The notes: generated by a model not told the origin, from the letters alone. A stretch of DNA of 64,000 bases from Candidatus Krumholzibacteriota bacterium (GCA_963727455.1 CAVSGG010000006.1:135483-199482); one strand, 5' to 3'. Counted from the stretch's first letter, positions 12,497 to 47,937 are shown. Numbers and translations are program-made.

Positions 12497-12527
12497 TGGA
12501 AATCAAGCGCCGCCGGATGGACTGCTA

Positions 12528-15500: not shown

Positions 15501-17087
15501 CCGGGAGCCGAGAGCCAAAGCTACTCTATCTATCTAAGGCGGCGAATCGAAGACGAGGACTTGGGTAGAGTGGCGCACACGGTCGGAGTCGACCTCACTC
15601 TTTTCGACGGGGCATGGGCCGTGGTCAGCAGCCGCGACGACCTCTTCAAGGCAGGCTTGATCGTGCCGGTTCTTCCCGCCGACGCGCAGCGTCTTTTGCG
15701 GCGAGGGGGAAGTCCTCGATATGTTACCACCGAGCCGGGCCAAGGTTTGGTCGTGGCGCGGGCCTACACCATCGTACCCGGGCCGGGAGAGCAACGCCGT
15801 GGAGTTCTGGCGGGGCGCCTCTTCACCCAGGCCACAGTGGCCGCCCTGGAACAGCGGCGCAGCTATCTCTTTCTCTTCGGGCTCTCCTCTTTGGCCTTTC
15901 TTTTGGCAACCGCGGCCGGTCTTTACCTGGCCGCGCGTACCGTCAATCCGATTTTGGTGCTCCTGGGAGCGACGCGCAGAGTGGGTGCGGGAGAACTCGA
16001 CGTGCGCCTACCGGAGAAGGGCGACGACGAGATCGGGGAACTCACTCATTCTTTCAATCTGATGACCCGCGATCTCGAGCAGAGCCAGCGCAGTCTGGCC
16101 GCGCGCCGGTCCTTCCTCGAAGCCATGCTGGGAGGTTTGAGCGCAGGAGTGCTCGTTCTCGACCCCGAGTTCGAAGTGGTCGAATCCAATCCAGCCGCGC
16201 GCAAGCTCGGGGAAAACGAGACTCACGAGCTTCTGACCCAACTCAAGGCGCAGGATCTCTCTCAGCAGACGAATAGCACCGAGGTCGTTCTCACCGGCGA
16301 AGAAACTCCGCGGACCTTGCGGGCTGTCATTTCGCCCATCCAGCTCGAAGCGGACAAACCCGGATGGCTGCTACTCTTCGATGATGTGACCGAGTTGCTC
16401 TCGAGCCGCCGTCTCGCGCTCTACGCGGAAATGGCGCGCCAAGTGGCGCACGAGGTAAAGAACCCCCTGACCCCCATTCAGCTCGCGGCGCAGATGGTGC
16501 GTCAGGCGTGTCACGACGAGCACCCCAGGAAAGAACAGATTGTCGACGACAGCGTCGAACAAATCGAGAGGCAGGTGCAACGCCTGCGCGAGATTGCTTC
16601 GGAATTCAGTTTGCTCGGTCGCCCCGATTTGCCCGAACTGGTGGCGGTCGAGCTCGGCGAGCTCCTCCAAGAGGTACAACTTCTCTATCCCTCGCCAGAC
16701 CGGCGCCTCGAGCTGCGCATTCACGGGGGCGAGGGGGTCCATGTGCTCGCGAACCGAGAGGCAATGCTGAAAATCCTCACGAACCTGGTGGAGAACGCCT
16801 GGCAGGCCATGGGAGGGACCGGAACGGTCGAGATCACCGCCTCGGTGGAGGGGGAAAGAGTGCAGCTGAGAGTGGTGGACGAGGGCCCCGGCATCTCTCC
16901 CGAGGCCGAGGGGCGCCTCTTCGAAGCCTATTTTTCCACCAAGAGTTACGGCACGGGTCTGGGGCTGGTCATCTGCCGGAATCTCACCGAAAAGATGGGT
17001 GGACGCATCCATCTGGCCAATCGGAGCGATCATCGCGGCGCGAGCGCGGTGGTGGAGCTGCCACGCTACCATCCCACGAATTCGTAG
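12528..17087 (+). CDS. Very large multi-TM sensor histidine kinase (NtrY-like: HAMP-PAS-HisKA-HATPase)
   Basis: Many TM helices; HAMP (DEIGELTHSFNLM), H-box MARQVAHEVKNPLTPIQL, NLVENA, DEGPGI, YFSTK, GTGLGL. Confidence 0.88.
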   Translation: MVRNFPLWVVLALGALLLSTTGEAVVWPSAALILTTCALLSWMRTRKLVSKGTTLFRLALVVLLVAASLMGLRLSKVASRQDGVWLRLARTRLDGGAEKVRSSLLLLEQNARQRAHEALLPNADLELLSRPLRLASSDLEIGISRWENGQIIDWAGQVPGPERVAPGPRPLLVDHGFRRYLTVSAQDDEGRVAYVDVSLGITRELFPRLGVGVDPGQVLSGKTGLKVSLRAVRPKPEEITGSLERVVAVPEKDPWAWVILTAPGAREERRMVLEREGRLLALLLLAAFLLATTLAWRGWSGRRVNRRSVATAALLALLVVMFRFGIERAQVLPLAFTSEHGLMHWLLEPAYFATTWGFGFLRSVLDFFLTSMALALVLLLLLPSWLYFLREGEARARRWAGAILLLLFSGGAMAWVFTLQRVVAQNANPKLIGLDAPFFTLPFQVLHWAMLLALLAPVGFVFLGWERWLRSLRSRQLLALGAGLLLGVAVLLFGGGSSRAFWAFLLPIVAVSVSRAMQHPSFSVRVVAALALILWLSATQAEGLRQVYRGLKESVATERALDRLHPRDNWRRVLVEELLRELSQNMAQLRQLADPNLDRSNAAFELWASSSSLSALGYGSHIVLLDAAGKVLSDFDLGLPYQAQPVVMPTTRPTGAEPFGVKTVQVQSARGTFLVYRGWLDLKYYIPNGDASWLRVDLPYGTTDPAAPIDFKPTGGPSALGFATGRDLLSPRQEFEQPVIMGRMGEKTVIAATDPVLVGLPVSSLAQDGSWHRVWRKGTPYQAKIVGEGGEQLVVAFALPTANERLLDATRLVALYLVAGALGLMCLLFLVALRPGSSRWPASLGRLGYQERLLGAMVVLVLLPVIVFGVFQSRRASANLRRSNMEEVTRRLDTALRLLANGLDDALRIRLDTGPVHDLLTTGKLGEENETAGDERDQVTVFDPSGEMIYDESHRELAPTQKHRLLQLLSGAVLVLEDDSTGWYLGRLYHEPGAESQSYSIYLRRRIEDEDLGRVAHTVGVDLTLFDGAWAVVSSRDDLFKAGLIVPVLPADAQRLLRRGGSPRYVTTEPGQGLVVARAYTIVPGPGEQRRGVLAGRLFTQATVAALEQRRSYLFLFGLSSLAFLLATAAGLYLAARTVNPILVLLGATRRVGAGELDVRLPEKGDDEIGELTHSFNLMTRDLEQSQRSLAARRSFLEAMLGGLSAGVLVLDPEFEVVESNPAARKLGENETHELLTQLKAQDLSQQTNSTEVVLTGEETPRTLRAVISPIQLEADKPGWLLLFDDVTELLSSRRLALYAEMARQVAHEVKNPLTPIQLAAQMVRQACHDEHPRKEQIVDDSVEQIERQVQRLREIASEFSLLGRPDLPELVAVELGELLQEVQLLYPSPDRRLELRIHGGEGVHVLANREAMLKILTNLVENAWQAMGGTGTVEITASVEGERVQLRVVDEGPGISPEAEGRLFEAYFSTKSYGTGLGLVICRNLTEKMGGRIHLANRSDHRGASAVVELPRYHPTNS

Positions 17088-25985: not shown

Positions 25986-27548
25986 ATGTTCGTCGTGGAT
26001 TCAGCCACGATTCGCGCCATCGACGCGGCGTCGATCGAGGCGGGCGTCATGGGAGTCCACCTCATGGAAGAGGCCGGCGCGGGCGCCGCTCGCATGCTCC
26101 TGGCCAAACCCGATTGGTTGTGGGGCACCACTTTGGTGCTCTGTGGGAGCGGCAACAATGGCGGCGACGGTCTGGTGGTGGCGCGGCTTCTGAAGGGCGA
26201 GGGGCACGAGGTGCGCGCTTTGCTCCTGCAGGACGAGGAGAAGTACCGGGGAGACGTCGCGACCAATCTCGTTCGCGCGCGCGAGGCCGGTGTTCCTCTA
26301 CACACCCTGCGACAGGACGCCGCAGCCGAGCTGCGGGAGATTGCGCGCGAATATCCCGGACGCGCTGTGGTAGATGGAATTCTGGGCACCGGCTTCAGGC
26401 CTCCCCTTCGCGGGCGGATTTTCGACTTGGTCGAGGCGATCAACTCGCTGGGCCGGCGCGTGCTCGCCCTGGATGCACCCAGCGGTCTCGACGCCTCCAC
26501 CGGAGCAGTGGATCCGGTGGCGGTCAGGGCGGATCTGTGCGCGACTTTCGGTCTGGCGAAATGGGGTCTCTTTCTGCCTCCCGGCCGCGGCTATTGTGGA
26601 ACGATCAACACGGTGGCGCTCCCCTTTCCCGAGGAAATCGTAAAGGAGCAAGTGAAGGCGAGTGAGAACTCCGCCCTCTACGTGAACAAAACCCTGGCCT
26701 CGGGATGGTGGAAGCCGAGAGCCTTCGACGCCCACAAGTACTCGGTGGGGAGCTTGCTCGTGGTGGGAGGAAGCACGGGAATGTCGGGCGCCGTTTCCCT
26801 GGCCTCTCTGGCCGCCCTGCGCAGCGGCGCGGGATTGGTGGAGGCTTTGGTGCCGGGAAGCCAGCGCCTCGCGGTCGATGCGAACTGTTTGGAAGTCCTG
26901 GTCCGTCCCATGCCCGAGACGGGGGTGGGTACTCTCTCGCCGGAAACCCTGGGCGAGATCTTGGAACGCTCCGAGCGTCATTCCGCCGTGCTCTTGGGCC
27001 CGGGGCTCGGCGCTGATCTTCAGACTGCGCAACTCGCCATCGAGGCGACGAAGGTGCTGAAGAAGCCCATGCTCGTCGACGCCGATGGGCTCAACGCCTT
27101 TGCGCGGCTGCAGACTCCGCTGCGTCTTCCTGAGGGTTCGGTCATCACCCCGCACACCGGGGAACTTCGTCGCCTGCTCGGAGAGGACGCGGATTTGGCC
27201 GCTGGTCGTGTGGAGAGCGTGAGGCGAGCAGCCGAGGATTTCTCCGTCGTGCTTTTGCACAAGGGAGCGCCCACCATGGTCGCCTCCCCCGATGGCGCCT
27301 TCGCGGTGATTGCTTCGGGCAACTCCGCGCTGGCCAGCGCCGGAACCGGCGATGTTCTGTCGGGGGTCATCGCGGCTCTTCTTGCGGCTGGATATGACGC
27401 CTTCGAGGCCGCGTGCTTGGGAGCTTGGATGCATGGAACGGCGGGTGAGCGCGTGTCGTCCCGGCTCGGCGAGGCGGGACTTCTCGCCCGGGATCTGCTC
27501 GAGGAGTTGGGCCCGGTGGGTCGGCAGTTGCAAGAGGCGAATCGATGA
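25986..27548 (+). CDS. nnr: Bifunctional NAD(P)H-hydrate epimerase/dehydratase (YjeF)
   Basis: LMEEAG, CGSGNNGGDG, DGILGTG, DAPSG, GPGLG, VDADGLN, TPHTGE, GTGDVLSG; GGAGGT RBS. Confidence 0.93.
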   Translation: MFVVDSATIRAIDAASIEAGVMGVHLMEEAGAGAARMLLAKPDWLWGTTLVLCGSGNNGGDGLVVARLLKGEGHEVRALLLQDEEKYRGDVATNLVRAREAGVPLHTLRQDAAAELREIAREYPGRAVVDGILGTGFRPPLRGRIFDLVEAINSLGRRVLALDAPSGLDASTGAVDPVAVRADLCATFGLAKWGLFLPPGRGYCGTINTVALPFPEEIVKEQVKASENSALYVNKTLASGWWKPRAFDAHKYSVGSLLVVGGSTGMSGAVSLASLAALRSGAGLVEALVPGSQRLAVDANCLEVLVRPMPETGVGTLSPETLGEILERSERHSAVLLGPGLGADLQTAQLAIEATKVLKKPMLVDADGLNAFARLQTPLRLPEGSVITPHTGELRRLLGEDADLAAGRVESVRRAAEDFSVVLLHKGAPTMVASPDGAFAVIASGNSALASAGTGDVLSGVIAALLAAGYDAFEAACLGAWMHGTAGERVSSRLGEAGLLARDLLEELGPVGRQLQEANR

Positions 27549-28564
27549 GAGTTCTGGGGATTGAGAGCTCCTGTGATGAAACCAGCGTGGCTTGCGTGGA
27601 CGATGGCGGCGTGCAGTCGAATCTCGTGAGTTCCCAGGTGGCTCTCCACGCGCGTTTCGGCGGGGTGGTTCCCGAGCTCGCCTCGCGAGCCCATCTGCGC
27701 AACATTCTGCCGGTTTTGGACGCCGCTCTCGAAGATGCCTCTTGGACGCTGGACGAGGTGGAAGCGGTGGCGGCGACGAGCGGGCCGGGTCTCATCGGCG
27801 CGGTGCTCATGGGACTCACCTGCGCCAAGGCCTTGGCGTGGGCCAAGAACCTGCCCTTCGTCGGTGTCCATCACATCGAGGGTCACATCCTCGCCAACGG
27901 AATCGACGCTCCCATGGCCTTCCCCGCTTTGGTCCTGGTGGTGAGCGGAGGACACACGCAGACGGTCTTGGCGCGCGCTCCAGGTTCGTACATCATCCTG
28001 GGAAGCACACGAGACGATGCCGCCGGTGAGACTCTGGACAAGACTGCGAAGCTCATGGGGCTGGGGTATCCCGGGGGCCCCATCATCGAGAAGATGGCGG
28101 CGCGCGGCCGCCCCCCCGAGGTGGAATTACCGGTAGGCCTGCGTCAGCGCGACGAACTCGATTTCTCCTTCAGCGGGCTCAAGACCGCGCTGCGGCTTCG
28201 ACTCGAGGACTTGGGTGAGAATCCGACCGAGCAAGACAAGTGTGACCTGGCCCGGGCGCTTCAGGATGCCGTCCTCGAGAGCTTGATACTGAAGACCCGA
28301 GCCGCTCTCGCCGCGGTCGCGGACGAGGGAATCGCCGGACTCTATTTGGCCGGTGGGGTGGCGGCAAACGGCCCCCTGCGGACAGCCTTCGCCGCGCTGG
28401 CCGAGGAGCGGGGCCTCGCCTTCGTTCCACCCCCCGCTCGCTACTGCACCGACAATGCGGCCATGATCGCCTGGGCCGGCCGTCTCCGGCTTTTGGCCGG
28501 TCAGCGGGACCCGCTCTCCCTGGGCGCTTTCGCGCGCGGGGCCCTCCCTCGGTGGGCCGCATGA
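27545..28564 (+). CDS. tsaD: tRNA N6-threonylcarbamoyltransferase
   Basis: LGIESSCDET, GGVVPELASRAH, HHIEGH, VSGGHT, DDAAGE..DK, FSFSGLKT, CTDNAAMIA. Confidence 0.97.
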   Translation: MRVLGIESSCDETSVACVDDGGVQSNLVSSQVALHARFGGVVPELASRAHLRNILPVLDAALEDASWTLDEVEAVAATSGPGLIGAVLMGLTCAKALAWAKNLPFVGVHHIEGHILANGIDAPMAFPALVLVVSGGHTQTVLARAPGSYIILGSTRDDAAGETLDKTAKLMGLGYPGGPIIEKMAARGRPPEVELPVGLRQRDELDFSFSGLKTALRLRLEDLGENPTEQDKCDLARALQDAVLESLILKTRAALAAVADEGIAGLYLAGGVAANGPLRTAFAALAEERGLAFVPPPARYCTDNAAMIAWAGRLRLLAGQRDPLSLGAFARGALPRWAA

Positions 28565-28638
28565 CCCACCGCGAGCTAGGCTGAGTCTCCATCCCGCCGG
28601 TAAAGTCTTTATGCGGACTGTCAGCTCCTGCCCCGATA

Positions 28639-28654
28639 TGGCAAGCAACCTGCA
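28639..28654 (+). promoter_or_regulatory. Putative sigma54 (-24/-12) promoter
   Basis: TGGCAAGCAACCTGCA matches TGGCA-N-(T)TGC with exact GG-N10-GC spacing, about 205 nt upstream of the signalling operon. Confidence 0.5.
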
Positions 28655-28741
28655 AGGAACGCGAGAGGATCACGGCCGTCGGCTCGAATCGAGCTTGGAT
28701 TCGCGCGCGGCCCACCGGGTAGCAGCTCGGGTCTGACCCTG

Positions 28742-28776
28742 CAATCCGTTGTACACATTCCAGTTACAACGGATTG
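28742..28776. repeat. Perfect 12-bp inverted repeat with 11-nt spacer
   Basis: CAATCCGTTGTA / TACAACGGATTG; flanked by GACCCT (28735-28740) / AGGGTC (28785-28790). Confidence 0.8.
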
Positions 28777-28858
28777 GTGGGAGGAGGGTCTTGCTCGTGG
28801 CTCCCGGCACCCGCTCGAGCGGCCGTGACATCCTGCAAGACACGAAGAAGGGCCAGTC

Positions 28859-29836
28859 GTGAAAGAAAGCATTCTCGTCGTCGATGACGAACCCCACATC
28901 CGCAAAATCCTGGCTTTTCTTTTGGAGCAGAATGGTTTTTCCGTGCTCACCGCGGAAAACGGGGAACGCGCGCTGGAGACAGCCCGGGAGCAGTTGCCCG
29001 ACCTGATCTTGCTGGACCTCATGATGCCCAAGATGGACGGCTACGAGGTGTGCCAGCACCTGCGTGAAGATTACAAGACGGCGCAGATTCCCATCATCAT
29101 CGTGACGGCCAAGGGCGACGTGCGCGAAAAGGTGCGCGGTCTCAAAGGCGGAGCCAACGACTACCTGACCAAGCCCTACGATCACGACGAGCTGGTGACT
29201 CGGGTACGCAACACGCTCGACTGGAGCCGGGCGCAACGGCAGGCGAATCCGCTCACCGGTCTCCCGGGGAATCAGGCGATCGAGAGCGAGCTGCAACGAC
29301 GCATCATGACCACGCAGCCGTTCTCCTTCATGTACATCGATATCGACAACTTCAAGGGTTACAACGACCACTACGGTTACTCGCGCGGTGACCAGGCCAT
29401 TCGCTTCGTGTCGGACATCATTCGTCAGACCTGTCAGCGCCTGGGAAACGAAGACGATTTCATCGGGCATATCGGCGGCGACGACTTCGTGGTCATCGGT
29501 TCTCCCGCGGTCGCGGACGCGGTCGCGCAGGGAATCGTCGATGATTTCGACGCGAACAGTCACTCCCTCCTGGATGCGGAAGACATCGAACGGGGCCATC
29601 TCGAGGTCCGGAACCGCTTCGGTGGCTCCAACGTCGTTCCCTTCTGCACCATCACTCTGGCGATGGTGACCGATACAGGAGGCACCTTCAATCACTGGGC
29701 AAAGGTGAGCGATGTTGCGGCCGAGTTGAAGAAGTACGGGAAATCTCTCAAGGGAAGCGTGGTGGTCAAGGAACGCCGGAGCCACGATTCGGATTCGGAG
29801 GCGGCGGGCATGGGGAAGGAAGAACTGATTTCCTGA
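28859..29836 (+). CDS. Response regulator with GGDEF (diguanylate cyclase) domain
   Basis: REC (VDDE, LLDLMMP, TAK, KP) followed by NPLTGLPGN, DIDNFKGYNDHYG...GD and HIGGDDF. Confidence 0.9.
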   Translation: MKESILVVDDEPHIRKILAFLLEQNGFSVLTAENGERALETAREQLPDLILLDLMMPKMDGYEVCQHLREDYKTAQIPIIIVTAKGDVREKVRGLKGGANDYLTKPYDHDELVTRVRNTLDWSRAQRQANPLTGLPGNQAIESELQRRIMTTQPFSFMYIDIDNFKGYNDHYGYSRGDQAIRFVSDIIRQTCQRLGNEDDFIGHIGGDDFVVIGSPAVADAVAQGIVDDFDANSHSLLDAEDIERGHLEVRNRFGGSNVVPFCTITLAMVTDTGGTFNHWAKVSDVAAELKKYGKSLKGSVVVKERRSHDSDSEAAGMGKEELIS

Positions 29837-29876
29837 TGTGTGGACTCAGGCAAACCAGCCAAGAAGTAGGCGGGAT

Positions 29877-32800
29877 ATGACGACGCTGCGACAGAGCTAT
29901 TCGAGTTTTCGCTACCTGGTGAGGAACGTGCGCTGGGTAGAGTTGACGATTACTGCCCTGATCGTCTTCTCGGCCCGGGAATTGAGTTACATTCACTTCG
30001 ATGCCCGGCCGGTACTTGCCATCTTTGTTCTCGCTTTCCTCTGGAATTTCCTCTTTTGGCACGCCGGCCGTCGGCACCTTCTGCGCGAGCGCGGGGTGGA
30101 GGGCTCCCGTTTGCTCTTCGTGTCGTGGCTCACCGCCGATGTCATTACGACCTTGTTGCTGGTCTACTTCACTGGTCTGACGAGCAGTCCGTTCCTCTTT
30201 CTGCTCGCGTTGCCGGTAATTCTCTCCACCGCGATGAGCGACGATACCAAACAGAGCTACGGTTTGGTCGCGGGCACGGCGCTGGGATTCCTCGCGCTCG
30301 TTGCCATGGAAAACGCGGGCAGCATTCCGCACACCGCGGTCTACCCCGCCGAGGTCGACGAACTCTTCCGCAGCCCCGACGTCGCCTTCGGAATCGGACT
30401 GATGATCGCAGCGGTCCTGAGTCTGATCGTCTTCACTCTCTATCGTTTCCGACCCAATTTCGCGTTCTTCCGCGATGGATTTCGGCAGGGACGTTTCAGG
30501 ATCCAGAGTTTCCGCACCGGAGACGTCCAGGACCTGAGACTGGAAGAAGTGGAGAGCGTGGGTCCGGAGGACCTGCTGGAGGAGGTCGTTCAGAACCTCA
30601 CCACGAACCCCTCCGTGTGCTTTGCGGCCGCGATCGTCTTCCCCGCCGGCGAAGAAACCGTCGGGGGCAGGCCCGGCAGCGATTGGCACGAGGGTCTCAC
30701 CCGCCAGCGCGCGGTGAGTATCACGCGCCGCCAGGTGATTCCGACCTGGAGCGAGTTCCACACGGAAAAGAGCGATTTCTTCAAAAGTCTGCGCTTCGGC
30801 GAGACCGGTGATCTCTGGGAGGGACCGTTCTCCTTGCTGCAAAGCGATGGACTGTTCACAAATTTCGATGGCGCGGACGTCTATCTCGCTACTCCGGTGA
30901 GCCAGGGGGGCAAGGCGGTCGTCGTGCTTCTCACCGGTTTGAGTCATCCGGTGAAGAGTCGCAACGATGTCGTGCTTCATCTCTTGCGCCTCGCTGCCCA
31001 GCTCAAGCCGCTGCTGGTAGCGGAGTCGCGTCTCACGCGTTTGCGCGGCGAGATCACCAGCTTGCACTCAGAGAACGAGAGTCTCAGCCGCCTCAACAAG
31101 ATGCAGGCGGAGTTCGTCGGCATGGCAAGTCACGAACTCAAGACGCCCCTGACCAGCATCGGAGCCTACACCGACGCTCTGCTGCTCGCGGCTGACCGTA
31201 CCGAGTTCCCCGAACGGCGCGAGTTCCTGGGAGTGATTCGATCCGAGGCGGATCGTCTGCTGAGGATGGTCAACCGCATTCTCGATTACTCCAAGATCGA
31301 GTTCAATCAGCGTGTCTTGCAGAGGCACCACTGCCAGCTGGAAGAATTGCTGGAGGAGGTCCTCGCGACGCTTCGTCCGGAACTGGAACGAAGCGGAGTG
31401 CGGGTCGAGGTCGATGTTCCCGCGAACCTTCCTCGAGTCGAGGTCGATCGGGACATGATGAAGCAGGTCTTGCTGAACCTCTTGAGCAATGCCCTGAAAT
31501 TCAGCCCCAAGAGCAGCGTGATCACCGTCAGCGCCGAGGAAGTCGCGACTACGGTCAACGTGACGGTGAAGGATATGGGCCCCGGCATTCCCGAGGACGA
31601 GGTTCAGAAAATTTTCCACCAATTCTATCGAGTACGGGACTACGGAGACGGTGTCGAGAGGACCGAGGGAACGGGCCTGGGTCTCTCCATCGTGCGCAAC
31701 ATCGTGACCGCGCACGGCGGCACGGTGCACGTGGACGGAGGATACGGCAAGGGCGCGGCCTTCAGTTTCACCATCCCGAAGGAACATCACGTCAACAGCC
31801 AACCCGAGACGGTCCTCGGTGAGGTCACGCGCAGTCCGGAGTTCGAACGCCTCATGCGCCTTCTAGTTCGCATGGTGGCCGACTACATGGACTGCAAGAT
31901 CGTCTCGGTCATGCTTCTTTCGCAGGACCGCTCCGAGCTCTTCGTACAGATCGCCTACGGCCTGGACGAGTCTATCGTGAAGGACGCCCGAGTAAGGGTG
32001 GGCGAGGGAATCGCCGGCCGCGTGGTCGCAAGCGGTCGCCCCCTCCTCATCGACAATGTCGCCGATACCGAGGGCTTGGAATCGCGTAGTCATACCGATC
32101 AATACGACACCAACTCGCTGGTCAGCGTGCCCCTCTTCATGAATGGTGAAGTCGTCGGCGTGATCAATTGTAACAACAAGGTCACCGGCGATTCGTTCTA
32201 CGCCGACGATTTGAGTTTGCTGATCACACTGACCGAGAAAGTGACGGTCGCGCTGGCGAGAGCGATGGCCTACGAGAACAGCAAGGGCACCCTCGACAAG
32301 ACTGTCGACGCCTTACAGTCTCTCGTGGAGCTGCACGCCTCCGAGGTGAGAACTTCGCCGCGGTCGGTGCGCTATGCGATGGATCTGGGCCGACGGCTCG
32401 GTCTCACCCGGCAGCAGGTTCTGGCTCTGCAATACGCATTCGTCATTCACGACGTCGGCATGACCAAATTGAACGAGGACATCATCCGCAAGCGCGGACC
32501 TCTCAGCGAAGACGAAATGAGCGTACTGCGCGCTCACCCAACGGTCGGCGTCGAGATGCTCGAGCCATTCATGAGCGCGGACGAGTTGGAGGAAATCGTC
32601 CGCTACCACCACGAGCGAGTAGATGGATCGGGATATCCGCACGGACTCAAGGGCGAACACATCCCCCTGCCCGCGCGTATCGTGGCCGTGGTGGATGCCT
32701 ACGAGTCGATGACCTCCCTGCGCGCGTACCGGGTGACGCTGACTCCGGCTGAAGCGGCGGAGGAACTCGTGAAGTACGCGGGAAGCCAATTCGACGCCGA

Positions 32801-32912
32801 GGTGGTACGCCTGTTCCTGGACGTGCTCCTGGAAAACGGTGAGCTCGACCGGCTCAACTGGGAACGACTGAAGGAGGGGGAGCAGTGGCTACGCCCCGCG
32901 TCCTTGTCGTAG
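29877..32912 (+). CDS. Membrane histidine kinase fused to C-terminal GAF and HD-GYP domains
   Basis: About 6 TM helices; SHELKTPL, NALKF, DMGPGI, GTGLGL; GAF (GEGIAGRV, SLVSVPL, VGVIN); IHDVG, HHERVDGSGYP. Confidence 0.88.
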   Translation: MTTLRQSYSSFRYLVRNVRWVELTITALIVFSARELSYIHFDARPVLAIFVLAFLWNFLFWHAGRRHLLRERGVEGSRLLFVSWLTADVITTLLLVYFTGLTSSPFLFLLALPVILSTAMSDDTKQSYGLVAGTALGFLALVAMENAGSIPHTAVYPAEVDELFRSPDVAFGIGLMIAAVLSLIVFTLYRFRPNFAFFRDGFRQGRFRIQSFRTGDVQDLRLEEVESVGPEDLLEEVVQNLTTNPSVCFAAAIVFPAGEETVGGRPGSDWHEGLTRQRAVSITRRQVIPTWSEFHTEKSDFFKSLRFGETGDLWEGPFSLLQSDGLFTNFDGADVYLATPVSQGGKAVVVLLTGLSHPVKSRNDVVLHLLRLAAQLKPLLVAESRLTRLRGEITSLHSENESLSRLNKMQAEFVGMASHELKTPLTSIGAYTDALLLAADRTEFPERREFLGVIRSEADRLLRMVNRILDYSKIEFNQRVLQRHHCQLEELLEEVLATLRPELERSGVRVEVDVPANLPRVEVDRDMMKQVLLNLLSNALKFSPKSSVITVSAEEVATTVNVTVKDMGPGIPEDEVQKIFHQFYRVRDYGDGVERTEGTGLGLSIVRNIVTAHGGTVHVDGGYGKGAAFSFTIPKEHHVNSQPETVLGEVTRSPEFERLMRLLVRMVADYMDCKIVSVMLLSQDRSELFVQIAYGLDESIVKDARVRVGEGIAGRVVASGRPLLIDNVADTEGLESRSHTDQYDTNSLVSVPLFMNGEVVGVINCNNKVTGDSFYADDLSLLITLTEKVTVALARAMAYENSKGTLDKTVDALQSLVELHASEVRTSPRSVRYAMDLGRRLGLTRQQVLALQYAFVIHDVGMTKLNEDIIRKRGPLSEDEMSVLRAHPTVGVEMLEPFMSADELEEIVRYHHERVDGSGYPHGLKGEHIPLPARIVAVVDAYESMTSLRAYRVTLTPAEAAEELVKYAGSQFDAEVVRLFLDVLLENGELDRLNWERLKEGEQWLRPASLS

Positions 32913-33268
32913 AAGACGAAGAGACTCTGGCCAGGGTCTTGAGCTTCTCGTTGGAGAACGAAGGCTACGTCGTCGCTCGGGCCGAGGACGGCGTGGAGTG
33001 CATGAATAAGGTCTCAACCTTCAGACCGGACGCCATTCTCATGGACATCATGATGCCCAATCTCGATGGGCTGGAGACCATTCGCCTGCTTCGCAGTAGC
33101 GAGCAGCACGTCAAACTTCTCATCGTTGCCGTCACGGCCAAGGCCAGCCTGTCGGATCGCGAAGAGGCCTTGGCCGCAGGAGCGGATCTCTTCGTAAAGA
33201 AACCCTTCCAGATCTCGTCTCTTCTCGATCAACTCGAAAGTCTGCTCGGCGCCCGCAGGATGGGTTGA
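32885..33268 (+). CDS. Single-domain response regulator
   Basis: VEDE, LMDIMMP, TAK, KKP; GTG start after AAGGAGGGGGAG. Confidence 0.88.
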   Translation: MATPRVLVVEDEETLARVLSFSLENEGYVVARAEDGVECMNKVSTFRPDAILMDIMMPNLDGLETIRLLRSSEQHVKLLIVAVTAKASLSDREEALAAGADLFVKKPFQISSLLDQLESLLGARRMG

Positions 33269-33271
33269 GCT

Positions 33272-35662
33272 GTGGGCGCGATTGAAGTAGACCGTCTGCT
33301 CGTGGCAACGGCCAGTTTTCTTCGCTGTCGCGAACGCAAGGAACTCGTGGCGCGCGTCACGGACTCCTTTCGCGAGACGATGGGCTTCGCCGCCGCCTGC
33401 TTGCGCCTGCGCGATCCCCTCACCGGGATGCTGGAAGTCTGGATGACCGGCGGGAGCCAGGGGCGGATCTCGTTCGGTGGAGATCTGGATCCGAGCGAGT
33501 TGGAGTCGATCCTCGCCGAGGAAAACCGCAATGGTTCGTGCTACCTCGTCCGCGGAGCGAGCGATCGCAAGGGCGAATTCCACCTGTACTTTCCGTTTCT
33601 GGGTAGTGATCAGTCCGTTCTGGGAATGATTCAACTCGCGGACTTCGAGCAAGAGGGCTCTCCCTCCGAAAACAAACTGCGCCTCGGAGAGCGCCTGGCC
33701 GAGCAAGCGGCTCTCGCCTTGGAGAGCATGAATCGCAACGAGGAGCTCAGCAAGAGCGTGCGCGAGCTCTCCAGCTCGCAACGCAGGGTCAAGGAGCTGG
33801 AAGCGCAGCAGGAAGAGTTCTTGGATGGAATCAGCCACGAACTGCGTACACCCCTCACTTCGATCCAGGCCTACTGTGAAGGCCTTCTGGCGCAACACGG
33901 GACGATGGACGAGCAGCTCAAGTCCGAGTTCCTCCAGGTGATTCTCGAGGAGAGCCAGAGACTTCACGAACGGGTCGAGGATCTTCTGGCGGTGGCGCGG
34001 CGTGAGCATCCAGCGGATAGCAAACGCCGCGAGAAATTTGATTTTTCCCAGCTGATCCGGGAAGCGGTCACGCGGATGGGAACGCTTTTCCGTGAGAAAT
34101 CTCTACGCTGTCATGCGCTTCTTCCCAGCGCGAGCGTCTTCTATGAGGGCAATCGGCCGGCGCTCGATCAAGTCGTCCTCGAACTCCTGGAGAACGCGAT
34201 CAAGTTCACCCCGGAAGGGGGGCTGGTCACCATCGGCCTGAGTGAGGCCGAAGGGGCCATCATCCTGCAGGTCGAGGACACCGGCGATGGTGTTCCCGAA
34301 GGGGAAACCAGTCGGGTGTTCGAGCGCTTCTACCAGGTGGACGGGTCCAGGACGCGTTCCCACGGAGGACAGGGACTCGGTCTCTCTGTGTGCCAGCAGA
34401 TCGTAGACGATCATGACGGGCGAATTTGGGTGGAGAAGGGGGAGAGCGGAGGAGCTCGATTCTGTGTGCGGATCCCGCGACGCCGCGCAGTTCTGCGCAA
34501 CGCGGTCACCCGGCGCACTCACCGTGACATTCGCGGCGAACTCTCAGGGCTTCTTGACGCGTCCGTGGCGCTGGTCGCCGAGCTCATGGGCTGCGGGATC
34601 GCCTCGATCATGGTCTACGACGAAAGAGAAAATTGTCTGAGGATTCAGGCCGCGGTGGGACTCGAGGAGGAAGTGGTTCGTGACACTCGGGTCGAACCGG
34701 GGAAAGGGGTGGCGGGACGCGTCTTTCAGAGTGGTCGCGCGCTTCTCTTGGAGGACCTCAGGAACGATTCGAGCCTGTCCAAGCTGGTGAACGAGCGACA
34801 GTACCAGGGCTACGGAGTGCTCAGCGTTCCCATCTTCGATCAGGAGAAAGTGGTCGGGGTGCTCAACGTCAACAACCAGAGCGAGAGCCGCGCGTTCGAC
34901 GAAGACGATCGCCTCCTGTTGGAGGCGCTCGCTCTGCGCATCGAACGAGCCTGGGCGAGTTATGAGAGTTTCGAGAAGTGTCACGATCGCATGGCGCAGG
35001 CCCGCGAGGCTTTTCGCGCCACGGTGAACTTGAGCCGTCACCGCCGAACCGAGCTGCGCGAACTCATCGTCCACTGCGGTTTGAAGGCGGCGCACGCGGC
35101 GGGCGCGGACGAGTCCGAGATCCGCGCGCTCAGCTACGCCCTGAGAATCTACGATCTCGGCCTCACCACGGTAGGCGAGGACATTCTCTCCAAGGTCACT
35201 CCACTCAGCGTCGCCGATCAGACTCTCATCCGCGATCACTCGCGGCGGGGCGCGCGACTCGTACGTGGATTGGAGGAAGATGGTGTGGTGGAAGCGATGC
35301 TCTACCACCACCACGAGAATTGGGACGGCAGCGGTTATCCCGAGGCGATCGAGGGCGAAGCCATTCCACAGGGAGCCAGGATCATCCGCCTGGTGGACGC
35401 GTTCAGTGCCATGGTGCACGGTCGTCCCGGCCGTCCACCCCTGGATCTCGACGAAGCGACCGCGCTCTTGAGGGAGGGTCTAGGGCGGCGCTTCTGTCCG
35501 CAGCTCGGCCCCTACTTCTTGCAGGCGGTGGCGGAGCGCGAACGCGTGTTTCGAGAACTTCTGCGACTTAGAAAACAACCCGTGGCCGAATCGCAACGGG
35601 CAGTCGAGCTTCCCTTGCTGGTCGGCGCCATCGACAGCGGGGTAGAGGAGGATGCGAAGTGA
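33272..35662 (+). CDS. Cytoplasmic histidine kinase fused to GAF and degenerate HD-GYP domains
   Basis: SHELRTPL, NAIKF, DTGDGV, GQGLGL; GAF (GKGVAGRV, LSVPI, VGVLN); HD replaced by YD (IYDLG), HHENWDGSGYP. Confidence 0.87.
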   Translation: MGAIEVDRLLVATASFLRCRERKELVARVTDSFRETMGFAAACLRLRDPLTGMLEVWMTGGSQGRISFGGDLDPSELESILAEENRNGSCYLVRGASDRKGEFHLYFPFLGSDQSVLGMIQLADFEQEGSPSENKLRLGERLAEQAALALESMNRNEELSKSVRELSSSQRRVKELEAQQEEFLDGISHELRTPLTSIQAYCEGLLAQHGTMDEQLKSEFLQVILEESQRLHERVEDLLAVARREHPADSKRREKFDFSQLIREAVTRMGTLFREKSLRCHALLPSASVFYEGNRPALDQVVLELLENAIKFTPEGGLVTIGLSEAEGAIILQVEDTGDGVPEGETSRVFERFYQVDGSRTRSHGGQGLGLSVCQQIVDDHDGRIWVEKGESGGARFCVRIPRRRAVLRNAVTRRTHRDIRGELSGLLDASVALVAELMGCGIASIMVYDERENCLRIQAAVGLEEEVVRDTRVEPGKGVAGRVFQSGRALLLEDLRNDSSLSKLVNERQYQGYGVLSVPIFDQEKVVGVLNVNNQSESRAFDEDDRLLLEALALRIERAWASYESFEKCHDRMAQAREAFRATVNLSRHRRTELRELIVHCGLKAAHAAGADESEIRALSYALRIYDLGLTTVGEDILSKVTPLSVADQTLIRDHSRRGARLVRGLEEDGVVEAMLYHHHENWDGSGYPEAIEGEAIPQGARIIRLVDAFSAMVHGRPGRPPLDLDEATALLREGLGRRFCPQLGPYFLQAVAERERVFRELLRLRKQPVAESQRAVELPLLVGAIDSGVEEDAK

Positions 35663-36039
35663 TGAGAAAGATCCTCGTTGTGGACGACGAGCTCTATATC
35701 CGCAACATTTTGGAGTTCGCCCTGAGCAGTGAGGGCTTCGAGGTATTCACCGTGGCAGACGGCGAACAGGCGCTGCAGAAGGCGCTCGATCTGATGCCCG
35801 ATTTGATCGTCTTGGACGTAATGATGCCCAAGCTCGACGGATTCGAAGTCTGTCGCGCCATCAAGGCCAAGGACGAAACCAAACACATCCCGGTCTTTCT
35901 GTTGACGGCGCGGGACAAGGAGGCTGACCGCCAGCGCGGCGAAGAGGTGAACTGCGACGTCTACCTGACCAAGCCGTTCAGCCCCAATAAGCTGGCCGAA
36001 CTCGTGCAGAAGTATCTGGCGCCTGCTGCCCAGGCCTAG
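35659..36039 (+). CDS. Single-domain response regulator
   Basis: VDDE, VLDVMMP, TAR, TKPF. Confidence 0.9.
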   Translation: MMRKILVVDDELYIRNILEFALSSEGFEVFTVADGEQALQKALDLMPDLIVLDVMMPKLDGFEVCRAIKAKDETKHIPVFLLTARDKEADRQRGEEVNCDVYLTKPFSPNKLAELVQKYLAPAAQA

Positions 36040-36078
36040 AGCTTCGACCCCGGGGTGCTCGGGGTCTATACTGTGGCC

Positions 36079-38106
36079 ATGGACCCCAAGACTCAGCGGA
36101 TGGTGAGCGCGCATGCCCGCTATTGCGAGGTCGCGCTCCCTCTGCCGTTGCCACAGACCTTCAGCTATCGAGTGCCCGACGAACTCGCCGGCGGACTTGG
36201 GCCGGGCTCTGTCGTGCGCGTTCCCTTTGGCAGGCGCGAGCGAATCGGGGTGGTGACGTCCCTGAGTGAAGTCCCGCCGTCCGTGCGCACCTTGAAGGAG
36301 CTGCGCGCGGATCTGGGAGAGGACTATCGCCTCCCCGAAGTGGCGATGTCGCTGGGAAGCTGGGTCGCTTCGTACTACGCCTGCAGCTTGGGCGAGGCCC
36401 TGGCGCTCTTCTTTCCGCCCCGGCCGGGAACCGCCGCGCGCAGATCTCCCCTGGAGCGAGGAGAGGCGGACGCCGAACCAGCCCACAGGCTCTCCGAAGA
36501 CCAGAAGGCAGCCCTTCGATGCGTGCTCACGCCGCTTACCGAAGGGAAGTACGAGAGTTTCCTCTTGCACGGGGTCACCGGCAGCGGCAAGACCGAAGTG
36601 TACCTACACGCGATTCAGCGGGCGATCGAATTGGGCAAGTCGGCCCTGGTCCTCTTGCCGGAGATCGCGCTCACCCCGCAGACCCTGGGCCGCTTGCGCG
36701 CGCGGTTTCCAAACAGAGTCGCACCGTATCACTCTCGCCTGAGTCACGGTGAGCGCTGTGCCGTGTGGGAGGCCGCCGCATCCGGCAGGGTATCGGTCGT
36801 GGTGGGAGCGAGGAGCTCCGCCTTCGTTCCGATGAAGAACCTGGGTCTGATCGTGGTCGACGAGGAGCACGACTCCAGCTACAAAGCCGACGACCGGCCA
36901 CGCTATCACGCGCGCGATCTCGCTCTGATGCGCGCGCGCTTGAGCAAAATCCCCATCATTTTGGGTTCGGCCACGCCCAGTCTGGAGAGCTATCACAACG
37001 CTCGTCTGGGCAAGCACCATAGGCTCGCCCTGCCATCGCGCATGGGGCAAGTGGAATTGCCCGCCGTGGAGATCGTGGATCTGCGGCGCAAAGAGGAGGG
37101 AGGGGAAGGACCGCTCGGGTCCCGCTTGAGCGCGGCTCTGGAACAGGTTTTGGAGCGCGGAAAACAGGCCATTCTGCTGCACAATCGGCGCGGCTTCGCC
37201 CGCTTCGTGCAATGTCACGCCTGTGGACACGTGGAGACCTGTCCCTCCTGTGACATCTCCCTCACTTGGCACTTGAAGAGCGATCACTTGCGCTGTCACT
37301 ACTGCGGCCACCGCAGGGCGCGTCCTACCACCTGCCCCGAGTGTGCCCAGCGCGTGTTCCGGCCGCACGGAGTGGGGACTCAGAGGGTGGAGCTGGCGTT
37401 GCAATCCCGCTTTCCAGAGGCCCACATCCTGCGTCTGGATCAGGATACGAGTTCCACCAAGCGCGGACATCAGGAGATCCTGGAGCAATTCGCCGCGGGC
37501 GAGGCCGACTTCCTGTTGGGCACGCAGATGGTGGCCAAGGGACTTCACTTTCCCCGTGTCAGCGTGGTCGGAGTGATCAGCGCCGACGCGGGGCTACACT
37601 TTCCGGACCTGCGCGCTCACGAACGCGCGTTCCAGCTTCTTACTCAAGTCGCCGGTCGCAGCGGCCGGACCTCGCCGGGCCGAGTCATCCTCCAGACCTA
37701 CGATCCCGAGCATCGCGTCCTGCGCCGGGTGCTCGGTCACGACGTGGAGGGTTTCTTGGCCGAGGAGCTCGAGCAGCGGCGGATCCTCGCGTATCCCCCG
37801 GTGAGACGACTCAGCGCCATCTTGGTCACCGCCGCGAGCGAAGAGGATCTCGACGCGGGCCTGAACCGGCTCGCCCGCCGCTTGAGCCGTTTGCTCGAGG
37901 GGACCAAGGTGGAGATTCTGGGGCCGGCCCGCGCGGCCCTCCCGCGGATCAACCGGCGATTTCGCGGGCAGATCTTGCTCAAGGGTAGCTTGAGCGCGGA
38001 AGGAAAACTGCTCATTTTGGAAGTACTGAGCGAGCTCGCGAGCGCTGAGAAAGGACGCAGGCGGCTGGATTTGGCGCTCGATGTCGATCCACAACACTTG
38101 CTCTGA
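36079..38106 (+). CDS. priA: Primosomal protein N' (replication restart helicase)
   Basis: GVTGSGKTEVY, PEIALTPQ, VDEEHD, GSATPS, four CxxC pairs, GTQMVAKG, QVAGRSGR, DVDP. Confidence 0.96.
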   Translation: MDPKTQRMVSAHARYCEVALPLPLPQTFSYRVPDELAGGLGPGSVVRVPFGRRERIGVVTSLSEVPPSVRTLKELRADLGEDYRLPEVAMSLGSWVASYYACSLGEALALFFPPRPGTAARRSPLERGEADAEPAHRLSEDQKAALRCVLTPLTEGKYESFLLHGVTGSGKTEVYLHAIQRAIELGKSALVLLPEIALTPQTLGRLRARFPNRVAPYHSRLSHGERCAVWEAAASGRVSVVVGARSSAFVPMKNLGLIVVDEEHDSSYKADDRPRYHARDLALMRARLSKIPIILGSATPSLESYHNARLGKHHRLALPSRMGQVELPAVEIVDLRRKEEGGEGPLGSRLSAALEQVLERGKQAILLHNRRGFARFVQCHACGHVETCPSCDISLTWHLKSDHLRCHYCGHRRARPTTCPECAQRVFRPHGVGTQRVELALQSRFPEAHILRLDQDTSSTKRGHQEILEQFAAGEADFLLGTQMVAKGLHFPRVSVVGVISADAGLHFPDLRAHERAFQLLTQVAGRSGRTSPGRVILQTYDPEHRVLRRVLGHDVEGFLAEELEQRRILAYPPVRRLSAILVTAASEEDLDAGLNRLARRLSRLLEGTKVEILGPARAALPRINRRFRGQILLKGSLSAEGKLLILEVLSELASAEKGRRRLDLALDVDPQHLL

Positions 38107-46630: not shown

Positions 46631-47902
46631 ATGGATCGATTTCTCATTCACGGACCTTGCACACTTTCGGGCAGCGTGGATGTGAGCGGTGCCAAGAATG
46701 CGGTACTTCCCCTCATGGCCGCGACGCTCTTGAGCCGTGGGGAGAGCCGAATTCGAAACGTGCCCAATCTGCGCGACACGCGAACCATGGGGAAAGTCCT
46801 CGAGACCTTGGGCGCCAAGGTTTCTCGCGAGGGCGATAGCTTGATCATCGATTCCAGCGGAGCAGAGGGGGTGGAAGCTCCCTATGAGTTGGTGAAGACC
46901 ATGCGCGCCAGCGTCTACGTTCTGGGCCCGCTTCTCAGCGCGATGGGAACGGCCAAGGTGAGTCTGCCTGGAGGCTGCGCGTGGGGGCCTCGGCCCATTG
47001 ACTTGCACCTGAAGGGCATGGAGATGTTGGGCGCGCAGGTGAAGCTCGAAGGGGGTTATGTGGTGGCGAAGAGGCCCAAGAGCCGTCTGCACGGCGGCAC
47101 GATGGACTTTTCCACCTCCAGCGTAGGCGCCACCGCGAACGTTCTCATGGCGGCGGTTCTCGCCGAGGGCACCACCGTATTGGAAAACGCGGCGCGTGAA
47201 CCCGAGGTCGGACAGCTGGCCGAAGCTCTGGTGGCGGCGGGGGCGAGGATCGAGGGCATCGGAAGCACCCGGCTGAGCATCGAGGGCGTGGAGGAGATCT
47301 CGCCGCTCGATGTCAGCGTGATCCCCGACCGCATCGAGGCCGGAACCTTCCTCTGTGCGGCTGCGATTTTGCGCTCCAAACTGCAGGTGAAGAGAGTGCG
47401 TCCCGAACATTTGCAAGCCACGATGGATGTCCTGGGCGGCAGCGGTTGCAGCTTCGAAGTCGCTTCCGATGCGGTCGAAATCGACGGAAGCAACGCCGAA
47501 CGGGCTCTGAACGCGGTCACGCGACCTTTCCCCGGATTTCCCACCGATATGCAGGCGCAGACCATGGCGGTGGCCACCCTCCTCGACGGAAACAGCGTGC
47601 TCACCGAGACCATCTATCCCGATCGTTTCACCCACGTGGCAGAGCTGCGTCGTCTCGGCGCCGACATTCGGCTCGATGGTAACTCCGCGGTCGTCCGGGG
47701 AGTCGCCCAACTCTCGGGCGCTCCCGTCATGGCCACCGATCTACGCGCTTCGGCTGCTCTCATCCTGGCTGGACTTGCCGCGAAGGGGGAGACGCTGGTC
47801 GATCGCATCTACCACATCGACCGAGGCTACGAACAGATCGAGCAGAAGCTCGCCCGGCTGGGCGCGAAAATCGAACGCGTTCCCGGACCTCCCACACCTT
47901 GA
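46631..47902 (+). CDS. murA: UDP-N-acetylglucosamine 1-carboxyvinyltransferase
   Basis: SGAKNAVLP, MRAS, PGGCAWGPRPIDLH, PDRIEAGT, PGFPTDMQAQ, ATDLRA, HIDRGY. Confidence 0.97.
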   Translation: MDRFLIHGPCTLSGSVDVSGAKNAVLPLMAATLLSRGESRIRNVPNLRDTRTMGKVLETLGAKVSREGDSLIIDSSGAEGVEAPYELVKTMRASVYVLGPLLSAMGTAKVSLPGGCAWGPRPIDLHLKGMEMLGAQVKLEGGYVVAKRPKSRLHGGTMDFSTSSVGATANVLMAAVLAEGTTVLENAAREPEVGQLAEALVAAGARIEGIGSTRLSIEGVEEISPLDVSVIPDRIEAGTFLCAAAILRSKLQVKRVRPEHLQATMDVLGGSGCSFEVASDAVEIDGSNAERALNAVTRPFPGFPTDMQAQTMAVATLLDGNSVLTETIYPDRFTHVAELRRLGADIRLDGNSAVVRGVAQLSGAPVMATDLRASAALILAGLAAKGETLVDRIYHIDRGYEQIEQKLARLGAKIERVPGPPTP

Positions 47903-47937
47903 GCCATACACCTTATCGTGAGGACGATCGCCGCCAG

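Follow-up and report, generated by a model that had tools for sequence, protein, structure and literature searches.

A kinase and receiver-cyclase operon of Krumholzibacteriota with degenerate HD-GYP tails that may read a cyclic dinucleotide

What does a phosphodiesterase-type domain do when it is carried at the C-terminus of a histidine kinase? This question is raised by five close-set signalling genes (g1 to g5) on the + strand of a 64,000-nucleotide (nt) window of Candidatus Krumholzibacteriota bacterium (GCA_963727455.1 CAVSGG010000006.1:135483-199482), which is the whole stretch that was searched and the frame for all coordinates given here. The genes are flanked by tsaD (27545-28564) and priA (36055-38106). 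They encode a receiver (REC) protein with a GGDEF-type cyclase domain (g1), a membrane sensor kinase (g2), a soluble sensor kinase (g4) and two single-domain receivers (g3 and g5), and both kinases continue into a GAF-HD-GYP tail. Degenerate GGDEF and EAL domains are well-known receptors of cyclic di-GMP (c-di-GMP). Only isolated inactive variants of HD-GYP domains are on record, to our knowledge, and for none of them has a function as receptor on a kinase been defined. An earlier sequence-only reading of the locus had proposed that the tails read or degrade the cyclic dinucleotide. The evidence now leans towards reading and disfavours degradation, because residues essential in the solved phosphodiesterase PmGH are absent from both tails and a canonical enzyme is encoded 14 kb away. 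At a probability of about 0.45, our preferred interpretation is a cyclase driven by phosphorelay whose product would be read by the degenerate tails of the kinases.

Residues of the two HD-GYP tails

Both tails score as members of the HD-GYP superfamily. Pfam HD_5 matches g2 with 115.5 bits (32316-32804, E 2.7e-33) and g4 with 87.5 bits (35042-35503, E 1e-24) against a cut-off of 27.2, and in each protein a GAF domain precedes this match (31842-32255 in g2, Pfam E 1.5e-15; 34541-34951 in g4, Pfam GAF). Among solved structures, PmGH from Persephonella marina (4MCW, also 4MDZ; E 5e-31 for g2 and 6e-34 for g4) matches both tails best over GAF and HD-GYP together, and it has the same GAF-helix-HD-GYP order. 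PmGH has eight metal ligands, E185, H189, H221, D222, H250, H276, H277 and D305 (PMC4159591). Replacement by Ala at each ligand is reported to nearly abolish activity, although the E185 and D305 changes leave some of it, and Ala at D183, K225 or D308 has the same effect (PMC4159591).

The two tails keep part of this site. E185, D222, H250, H276, H277, D305 and the GYP motif are present in both, and the pattern HHE..DG.GYP is retained in 121/121 relatives. D183 is replaced by Ala in g2 and Arg in g4, H189 by Ser and Leu, K225 by Met and Leu, and D308 by Glu and Ser, respectively. H221 is kept in g2 and is Tyr in g4, where the "HD" motif actually reads YD (IYDLGL); the domain that had been called HD-GYP in g4 is a YD-GYP. 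PmGH is an active, free-standing enzyme, whereas the tails follow a kinase; H189, K225 and D183 are missing from both, as are H221 and D308 from g4. Neither tail has the full PmGH-type catalytic set of eight ligands plus D183, K225 and D308. The c-di-GMP site motifs named in an HD-GYP census are RxY[K/R] and KPG (bioRxiv 10.1101/2021.11.05.467447). At the position of the PmGH RxxK motif g2 has RAYR and g4 has RPGR, an RxxR form that would fit the c-di-GMP-type RxY[K/R].

The canonical GAF-HD-GYP protein of the window is encoded at 49976-51646 on the + strand (556 amino acids (aa); found by Pfam, PmGH alignment E 7e-51). It retains D183, H189, the HD motif, K225, H250, the HH pair, D305, D308 and RxxK, with Asp at position 185 of the PmGH alignment. 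This protein is likely the real c-di-GMP phosphodiesterase of the region, judging from these residues.

Kinase-fused tails across the lineage

The architecture of g2 and g4 is found in a large family. A search with g4 gave 3156 matches among 7998 scored, of which the 120 best were listed, and a search with g2 gave 2032 matches among 7999 scored, with generic kinases after the first 90. HATPase_c, GAF and HD_5 occur together in 120/120 of the best g4 matches, HisKA as well in 119/120, and 88 of the best 90 g2 matches share the kinase-GAF-HD-GYP architecture (two are fragments). The architecture comprises at least 207 protein clusters at 90% identity from Krumholzibacteriota-like metagenomic bacteria. 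It had been described as an atypical domain order. This is correct in general, but by these matches the order appears to be standard within the Krumholzibacteriota-like lineage. Two kinases in other phyla (L007 4370-7657, a Chloroflexota metagenome-assembled genome (MAG), and L070 9731-11488, a Fimbriimonadaceae MAG) align with g4 as far as the C-terminal GAF and go no further. They were rejected as further relatives of the architecture, as their open reading frames (ORFs) stop right after the kinase-GAF match without an HD-GYP (judged from ORF ends, with no Pfam scan). A kinase-GAF form without HD-GYP seems to occur in other phyla.

The tails of this family share a specific pattern of loss and retention. 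In the combined set of 212 tail sequences, 211 have a residue at the HD position, which reads YD in 115 and HD in 96. At the K225 position 211/211 fused tails have Leu or Met and none has Lys. D222, H250, H276, H277 and the Gly, Tyr and Pro of GYP are retained in 115/115 YD-type and 95-96/96 HD-type tails, D305 in 115/115 and 94/96, and R314 in 198/211 of all fused tails. The K317 position is Gln (RxxQ) in 55/115 YD-type tails (including P0026-P0112), although g4 itself has RxxR.

Relatives outside the kinases provide the comparison. The g4 tail (aa 405-796) was searched against 1.84 billion cluster representatives and matched 890 proteins at E <= 1e-30 and 55,088 at E <= 1e-10, so GAF-HD-GYP as such is very common. 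Among the best 150 matches, 134 have an alignable HD-GYP domain, comprising 39 kinase-fused representatives and 95 proteins without a kinase core. Lys at K225 is found in 0/39 of the fused representatives and His at H221 in 7/39, whereas both residues are present in 83/95 of the non-fused relatives; most of the 12 non-fused exceptions have lengths of 295-443 aa and could be fragments. A 686-aa HisKA-HATPase-REC-HD-GYP hybrid (P0332) retains HDIGK. The counts of 0/211 and 0/39 in fused tails against 83/95 in non-fused relatives therefore indicate that loss of the HDxGK Lys accompanies direct fusion behind a kinase.

Phylogenies separate the two types of tail. In a FastTree phylogeny (210 of 213 sequences) g2 lies in an all-HD clade (n=68), and g4 lies with a tail from the related contig L019, discussed below, in a clade that is 115/116 YD (support 0.999), with HD-bearing groups as sister. 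IQ-TREE with 56 sampled sequences recovers the YD clade with an ultrafast bootstrap (UFBoot) of 100 and one apparent reversal, and the largest all-HD clade, containing g2, with 95. It appears from these clades that the His-to-Tyr change at the HD motif arose once and was then kept. In close orthologues the tail GAF and HD-GYP are 61-68% identical, on par with HisKA/HATPase_c (61-76%) and above the N-terminal sensors; in distant relatives the sensors fall to 17-25% while the tails hold 35-50%. Because the retained residues are near-invariant and tail identity matches that of the kinase core, the tails are not decaying.

Such conservation raises the alternative that the tails continue to hydrolyse the dinucleotide at a rebuilt metal centre, for instance a two-metal site or a Tyr-ligated iron. 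The kinase would then be bifunctional, activating the cyclase by phosphorylation and degrading its product, and would act as a pulse generator. The near-invariance of D222, H250, H276, H277, D305, the GYP loop and R314 and the retained E185 equivalent fit this alternative, as does the replacement of H221 by one specific Tyr (115/116 in the clade), which is not random drift. Active enzymes without "a key His" are also on record (bioRxiv 10.1101/2021.11.05.467447). However, a single Ala at H189, H221, K225, D183 or D308 abolishes PmGH activity, and g2 lacks three of these residues and g4 lacks five. The contrast at K225 between fused and non-fused domains also speaks against hydrolysis, and the YN-GYP variant PA2572 is reported to be inactive (PMC3749722). 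We consider working tails unlikely and favour tails that read the dinucleotide.

The operon, its cyclase and its kinases

The five genes are tightly packed or overlapping, with spacings of +1 nt (g1-g2), -28 nt (g2-g3), +3 nt (g3-g4), -4 nt (g4-g5) and +15 nt (g5-priA). ORF coordinates and Pfam thus bear out the earlier description of five such genes between tsaD and priA. Its start at 28639 was 220 nt too early, as the first start codon after an in-frame stop is GTG 28859 and 28565-28858 is intergenic. Pfam matches to Response_reg, HisKA, HATPase_c, GAF and HD_5 in g1-g5 have E values of 1e-13 to 1e-35, far better than chance would give; no NCBIfam model matches any of the five proteins above its curated cut-off. 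Pfam and NCBIfam find no DNA-binding domain among the five, in line with the proposal of an operon without DNA-binding output. The longest ORF of g2 (29838-32912) starts at GTG 29838 and gives 1024 aa, but the true start is probably ATG 29877, giving 1011 aa and a g1-g2 gap of 40 nt instead of 1 nt. This start is favoured because orthologue lengths and family N-termini agree: an orthologue at 95% identity has 1011 aa, and the family N-terminus is MxxLxxSY.

Parts of this arrangement can be followed in relatives. A scan of genome contigs mostly picked up the generic kinase pattern SHE[LF]RTPLT (592/603 stretches were kinase relatives), and of the 80 loci retained only L019 has the architecture. 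This 6.4-kb contig of a distant Krumholzibacteriota MAG carries a truncated YD-type kinase, a REC gene and priA (L019 2051-4093), so that the kinase-REC-priA adjacency is repeated, with a gap of 9 nt before priA. The L019 receiver is 52% identical to g5 and also lies between kinase and priA, and g5 is its orthologue. Co-location was further assessed by comparing the sizes of the longest contigs between the listed matches of g1, g2 and g4 (90-120 per search), with equal size taken as the same contig. The match tables have 19 equal-sized contigs in common (g2/g4 10, g2/g1 9, g4/g1 4; two in all three), against a chance expectation of 0.2-0.4 per table pair, from near-miss counts, and <1 overall. 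Each size occurs only once per table, and every contig is long enough for its genes. Six of the 19 contigs are just 4.9-8.6 kb long, which implies adjacency of the genes; g1 and g2 occur together on contigs of 4931, 5128, 7913 and 8164 nt. The co-occurrence extends to relatives of ~34-54% identity. The g1 and kinase genes thus appear to share contigs far above chance, with the gene set staying together. Co-conservation, which the sequence-only reading had made a test of its operon, holds in these data for g1, g2 and g4, and for kinase-REC-priA through L019.

The cyclase gene g1 (28859-29836, 325 aa) encodes a REC domain (aa 5-117, nt 28871-29209; Pfam Response_reg E 7e-35) followed by the cyclase domain (~aa 131-304, nt 29249-29770; Pfam GGDEF E 8e-17), where the Pfam match spans only profile positions 5-88 of 161. 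Its motif, reported earlier as GGDEF, reads GGDDF. Among g1 and its 120 best matches, 120/121 have GGDDF and one has GGDDY. The cyclase domain is 53-92% identical within this family, whose named members are Candidatus Krumholzibacteria and Latescibacteria. An AlphaFold2 (AF2) model of g1 (mean predicted local distance difference test (pLDDT) score 84.6) shows an extra beta-hairpin at aa 248-260, and its best Foldseek matches are WspR (3bre, E 3e-23), DgcR and PleD. D161 and D163 (DxD), N169, D178, K291 and G294-K295 are invariant in 53 aligned family sequences. We take the roles of N169 and D178 (NDHYGYSRGD), the DxD motif and the distal K...GK to be those in PleD, with the Asn and Asp binding guanine. 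This Asp presumably lies at the position of the Ser that is diagnostic of Hypr enzymes. At the I-site position, which we take to be an RxxD five residues before the GG motif, g1 has NEDD, and Arg is likewise absent from the family consensus at this site, so the signature of product inhibition is lacking.

The g1 domain therefore departs from the active-site definition [G/A/S]G[D/E]E[F/Y] (PMC8835794) while having the cyclase fold, DxD, the Asn and Asp, and the distal Lys. A GGDDF domain from Geobacter, that of GSU1937, is active for cyclic GMP-AMP (cGAMP) and c-di-GMP and was called the first such example (PMC8835794). Hypr GGDEF enzymes, which make cGAMP, have the diagnostic Ser in place of Asp (PMC8835794); a Hypr identity for g1 was rejected, since the Asp of NDHYGYSRGD is retained. 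A Cas10-like GGDD cyclase was also considered and rejected, as all sequence and fold matches of g1 are GGDEF diguanylate cyclases.

Both kinases have all the boxes of HisKA-type sensor kinases. These read SHELKTPL (H), LLSNALKF (N), KDMGPGIP (G1), FHQFYRV (F) and GTGLGLS (G2) in g2, and SHELRTPL, LLENAIKF, EDTGDGVP, FERFYQV and GGQGLGLS in g4. Both carry the H-E-x-x-T motif, and the kinase H, N, D and G residues are retained in 120-121/121 relatives. The membrane kinase g2, of clade A, has HisKA at 31104-31301 (Pfam E 3e-17) and HATPase_c at 31446-31784 (E 9e-28). The soluble kinase g4, of clade B (33272-35662, 796 aa), has an N-terminal GAF_2 at 33329-33724 (Pfam E 4.4e-7, above cut-off), HisKA at 33809-34009 (E 3e-16) and HATPase_c at 34151-34483 (E 1e-29); against Protein Data Bank sequences it matches HK853 (E 4e-42) and PmGH (E 1e-33).

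An AF2 model of g2 aa 1-430 (pLDDT 81.7) places a helical membrane part at aa 10-203 (~nt 29877-30485), a disordered linker and an alpha/beta domain at aa 243-370 (~nt 30603-30992), from which a long helix runs into HisKA. Foldseek relates the alpha/beta domain to GAF with a probability of ~1, weak E values of 2e-3 to 2e-2 and TM-scores <=0.63 (single-domain targets), and the nearest Atlas clusters are GAF proteins (0.96). The GAF-HD-GYP tails had been noted before, but the domain order given for g2 missed this GAF-like domain before HisKA. With the g4 GAF_2, both kinases therefore have the order GAF-HisKA-HATPase-GAF-(H/Y)D-GYP, and by sequence and model g2 has the same architecture as g4 plus an added membrane module. 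The two are 33.3% identical in their cores and 33.5% in their tails, while their tails are only 22-26% identical to the 49976-51646 protein. As the tails are alike to the same degree as the cores, and less like the canonical protein, the fusion predates the duplication. Identity and separate well-supported clades agree with the earlier view that g2 and g4 are paralogous, and by their sequences we consider them true paralogues.

Each of the three receivers carries the REC set of an acidic pair, phospho-Asp, Thr and Lys: DD, D53, T83 and K105 in g1; E10/D11, D54, T84 and K106 in g3 (32885-33268, 127 aa; Pfam REC E 7e-29); and DD, D53, T83 and K105 in g5 (35659-36039, 126 aa; Pfam REC E 3e-28). 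The intact kinase boxes and receiver residues claimed from the sequence are thus confirmed. The g1 REC is 44% identical to g5 and 33% to g3, and g3 and g5 are 29% identical. A DivK-type NCBIfam model matches g5 weakly (67.5 bits against a cut-off of 160).

The tsaD-g1 spacer is 294 nt long and contains an inverted repeat at 28737-28781 on the + strand, ~80 nt before g1, with 17-nt arms that are 88% complementary, an 11-nt loop and no T-run after it. A single copy of its exact 10+10 core is present in the window, against 0/100 shuffles with one, and its RNA fold has -29.5 kcal/mol (z -2.9). It may be an operator or a hairpin in the 5' leader. Rfam has no match anywhere in the 64 kb, tRNA included, and so no c-di-GMP riboswitch; the promoter and terminator scan found no site above shuffled background. 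The priA gene (+ strand, Pfam PriA domains) follows g5 with no terminator-like signal above background between them, and from this layout it may be co-transcribed with the signalling genes. Elsewhere in the window, 12483-17087 encodes a 1534-aa HAMP-HisKA-HATPase kinase with ~1100 N-terminal residues lacking a Pfam match, with a DUF4175-like protein of 1187 aa and a TPR protein encoded downstream. The gene at 47899-49839 specifies a SelB-type selenocysteine elongation factor, so the organism probably makes selenoproteins.

A reader model, its rivals and known systems

The anatomy of the genes, the states of the residues, the family-wide pattern and the gene co-location form the observed basis of the preferred interpretation. 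From the sequences we infer which proteins exchange phosphate, that g1 is active as a cyclase, that the tails bind nucleotide, and the feedback. Two paralogous bifunctional HisKA kinases, one in the membrane and one soluble, would take their input through the N-terminal GAF domains and pass phosphate to three receivers, the g1 REC, g3 and g5. Phosphorylation would switch on g1 as a WspR/DgcR-type GGDDF cyclase making c-di-GMP. The GAF-(H/Y)D-GYP tails would derive from a PmGH-type phosphodiesterase that lost its hydrolysis residues and kept the GYP loop, residual metal ligands and RxxR, and would now mainly read the dinucleotide, or the cyclase itself. Such reading may feed the messenger level back on the kinase/phosphatase balance or on localisation. 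The receivers g3 and g5 would be a diffusible output or phosphate sinks, the output would not run via transcription, and the true hydrolase would be encoded elsewhere.

A second alternative is that the tails are docking modules that hold g1 at the kinase independently of nucleotide, as RpfG HD-GYP domains do with GGDEF proteins. GYP is present in every tail with a residue there, and g1 retains its DxD motif; the Xanthomonas RpfG-GGDEF contact requires both GYP and DxD (PMC3749722). A WspR-RpfG complex is described in Lysobacter (PMC9758175), and the short contigs shared by g1 and g2 would also suit a contact. Docking alone, however, does not explain the conserved metal ligands and RxxR, and we regard it as improbable. 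Even less probable is that the tail or its GAF senses a ligand other than the g1 product, such as cGAMP, cyclic AMP (cAMP) or cyclic GMP (cGMP), or iron or redox state via the residual metal site. The RxxQ form of many YD-type tails is tied to cGAMP preference in the HD-GYP census, where HD-GYP metal centres are also described as redox sensitive (bioRxiv 10.1101/2021.11.05.467447), and the next matches of the tail GAF after PmGH are a cGMP-phosphodiesterase GAF (5w10, E 8e-19 for g2) and the CyaB2 GAF. Yet g2 and g4 themselves have RxxR, which would fit the c-di-GMP type, and g1 retains, at the presumed position, the Asp that is Ser in cGAMP-making Hypr enzymes (PMC8835794). Finally, that the genes are mere neighbours whose kinases serve receivers encoded elsewhere, as another large kinase in the window (12483-17087) might suggest, is very improbable given overlapping or 1-15-nt spacing, contig co-occurrence down to ~34-54% identity and the repeated kinase-REC-priA order.

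Several points weigh against the preferred interpretation. Five to seven of the eight metal ligands, with the E185 equivalent, remain, so a two-metal centre and some hydrolysis may be conceivable. RpfG is described as lacking the "key His", yet robust c-di-GMP hydrolysis is reported for one of its close relatives (bioRxiv 10.1101/2021.11.05.467447). In place of KPG, g2 has KRG and g4 has KVT. The linker from HATPase_c to the tail GAF is poorly conserved (20-47%), which argues against a rigid allosteric connection and favours tethering or local signalling. Adjacency in relatives is deduced from equal contig sizes, with gene order read directly in L019 only, and the size comparison covers g1, g2 and g4. 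The precedent for GGDDF activity is one engineered fusion from another family.

Several known systems resemble parts of this proposed circuit. CckA is reportedly a kinase that reads c-di-GMP. So does ShkA (PMC7010744), and SgmT does so via its C-terminal GGDEF domain (PMC3509222). SgmT of Myxococcus xanthus (GAF-kinase-REC-GGDEF) likewise has an N-terminal GAF as primary sensor, a kinase and a C-terminal enzyme-type domain that serves as receptor and not as enzyme (PMC3509222). However, its reader is a GGDEF domain, its REC is fused and its partner DigR binds DNA, whereas g2 and g4 have no fused REC and the operon has no DNA-binding output. The Caulobacter PleC/DivJ-DivK-PleD set with CckA/ShkA likewise combines two kinases, a single-domain receiver, a receiver-cyclase and c-di-GMP-responsive kinases, the response being a proposal for the operon. 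Its parts are scattered and bind c-di-GMP at the catalytic and ATP-binding (CA) domain or a pseudo-receiver, whereas here they form one operon with a presumed degenerate HD-GYP reader; no orthology is implied. RpfC/RpfG and P0332 also couple a two-component kinase to HD-GYP, and GYP is used in GGDEF-protein contacts (PMC3749722). There the HD-GYP lies behind a receiver (with HDIGK kept in P0332), whereas g2 and g4 contain no REC, the domain before their HD-GYP is a GAF and no fused tail retains the HDxGK Lys; they do not fit the RpfG family.

The cyclase g1 shares the REC-helix-GGDEF fold of WspR, DgcR and PleD, but differs in its near-invariant GGDDF instead of GG[DE]EF, its missing RxxD I-site and its extra beta-hairpin. 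GSU1937 shares GGDDF with g1, but is a membrane Hypr enzyme and not a response regulator (PMC8835794). PA2572 of Pseudomonas aeruginosa (YN-GYP) parallels g4 in having Tyr for the His of HD, and is inactive but regulatory (PMC3749722). It is of REC type and has lost the Asp too, whereas g4-type tails retain the Asp and are fused to kinases. In the literature searched, with the census supplements and Tables 1 and 3 outside its scope, no paper was found that describes a GAF-HD-GYP fusion to a histidine kinase or that uses the term "YD-GYP". The main text of the census names REC-, GAF-, DUF3391-, PAS- and periplasmic-sensor fusions (bioRxiv 10.1101/2021.11.05.467447), and an Alphaproteobacteria survey mentions HisKA/HATPase with EAL and not with HD-GYP.

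The operon is built from known signalling parts in an arrangement common in an uncultured lineage and uncharacterised. A bolder form of the reader model is doubtful, though worth stating. In it, kinase-fused (H/Y)D-GYP domains would be a new class of cyclic-dinucleotide receptor, descended from a phosphodiesterase by fixed loss of the HDxGK Lys and of the first His, with His-to-Tyr at the HD motif in the larger clade. They would act in a self-contained feedback switch or oscillator with an obligate GGDDF receiver-cyclase and two receivers, where the kinases start c-di-GMP synthesis and are reset by c-di-GMP, in a module conserved across Krumholzibacteriota-like bacteria and co-transcribed with priA. 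The natural family of at least 207 clusters at 90% identity shows the same catalytic residues lost at each kinase fusion, with the rest of the site under selection. It thus offers a clear, testable case for how a phosphodiesterase may turn into a sensor, with second-messenger and phosphorelay wiring within one polypeptide. With the g1 family, GGDDF cyclases would gain a second example, this one phylum-wide, and the whole gives some functional annotation to a phylum known almost only from metagenomes.

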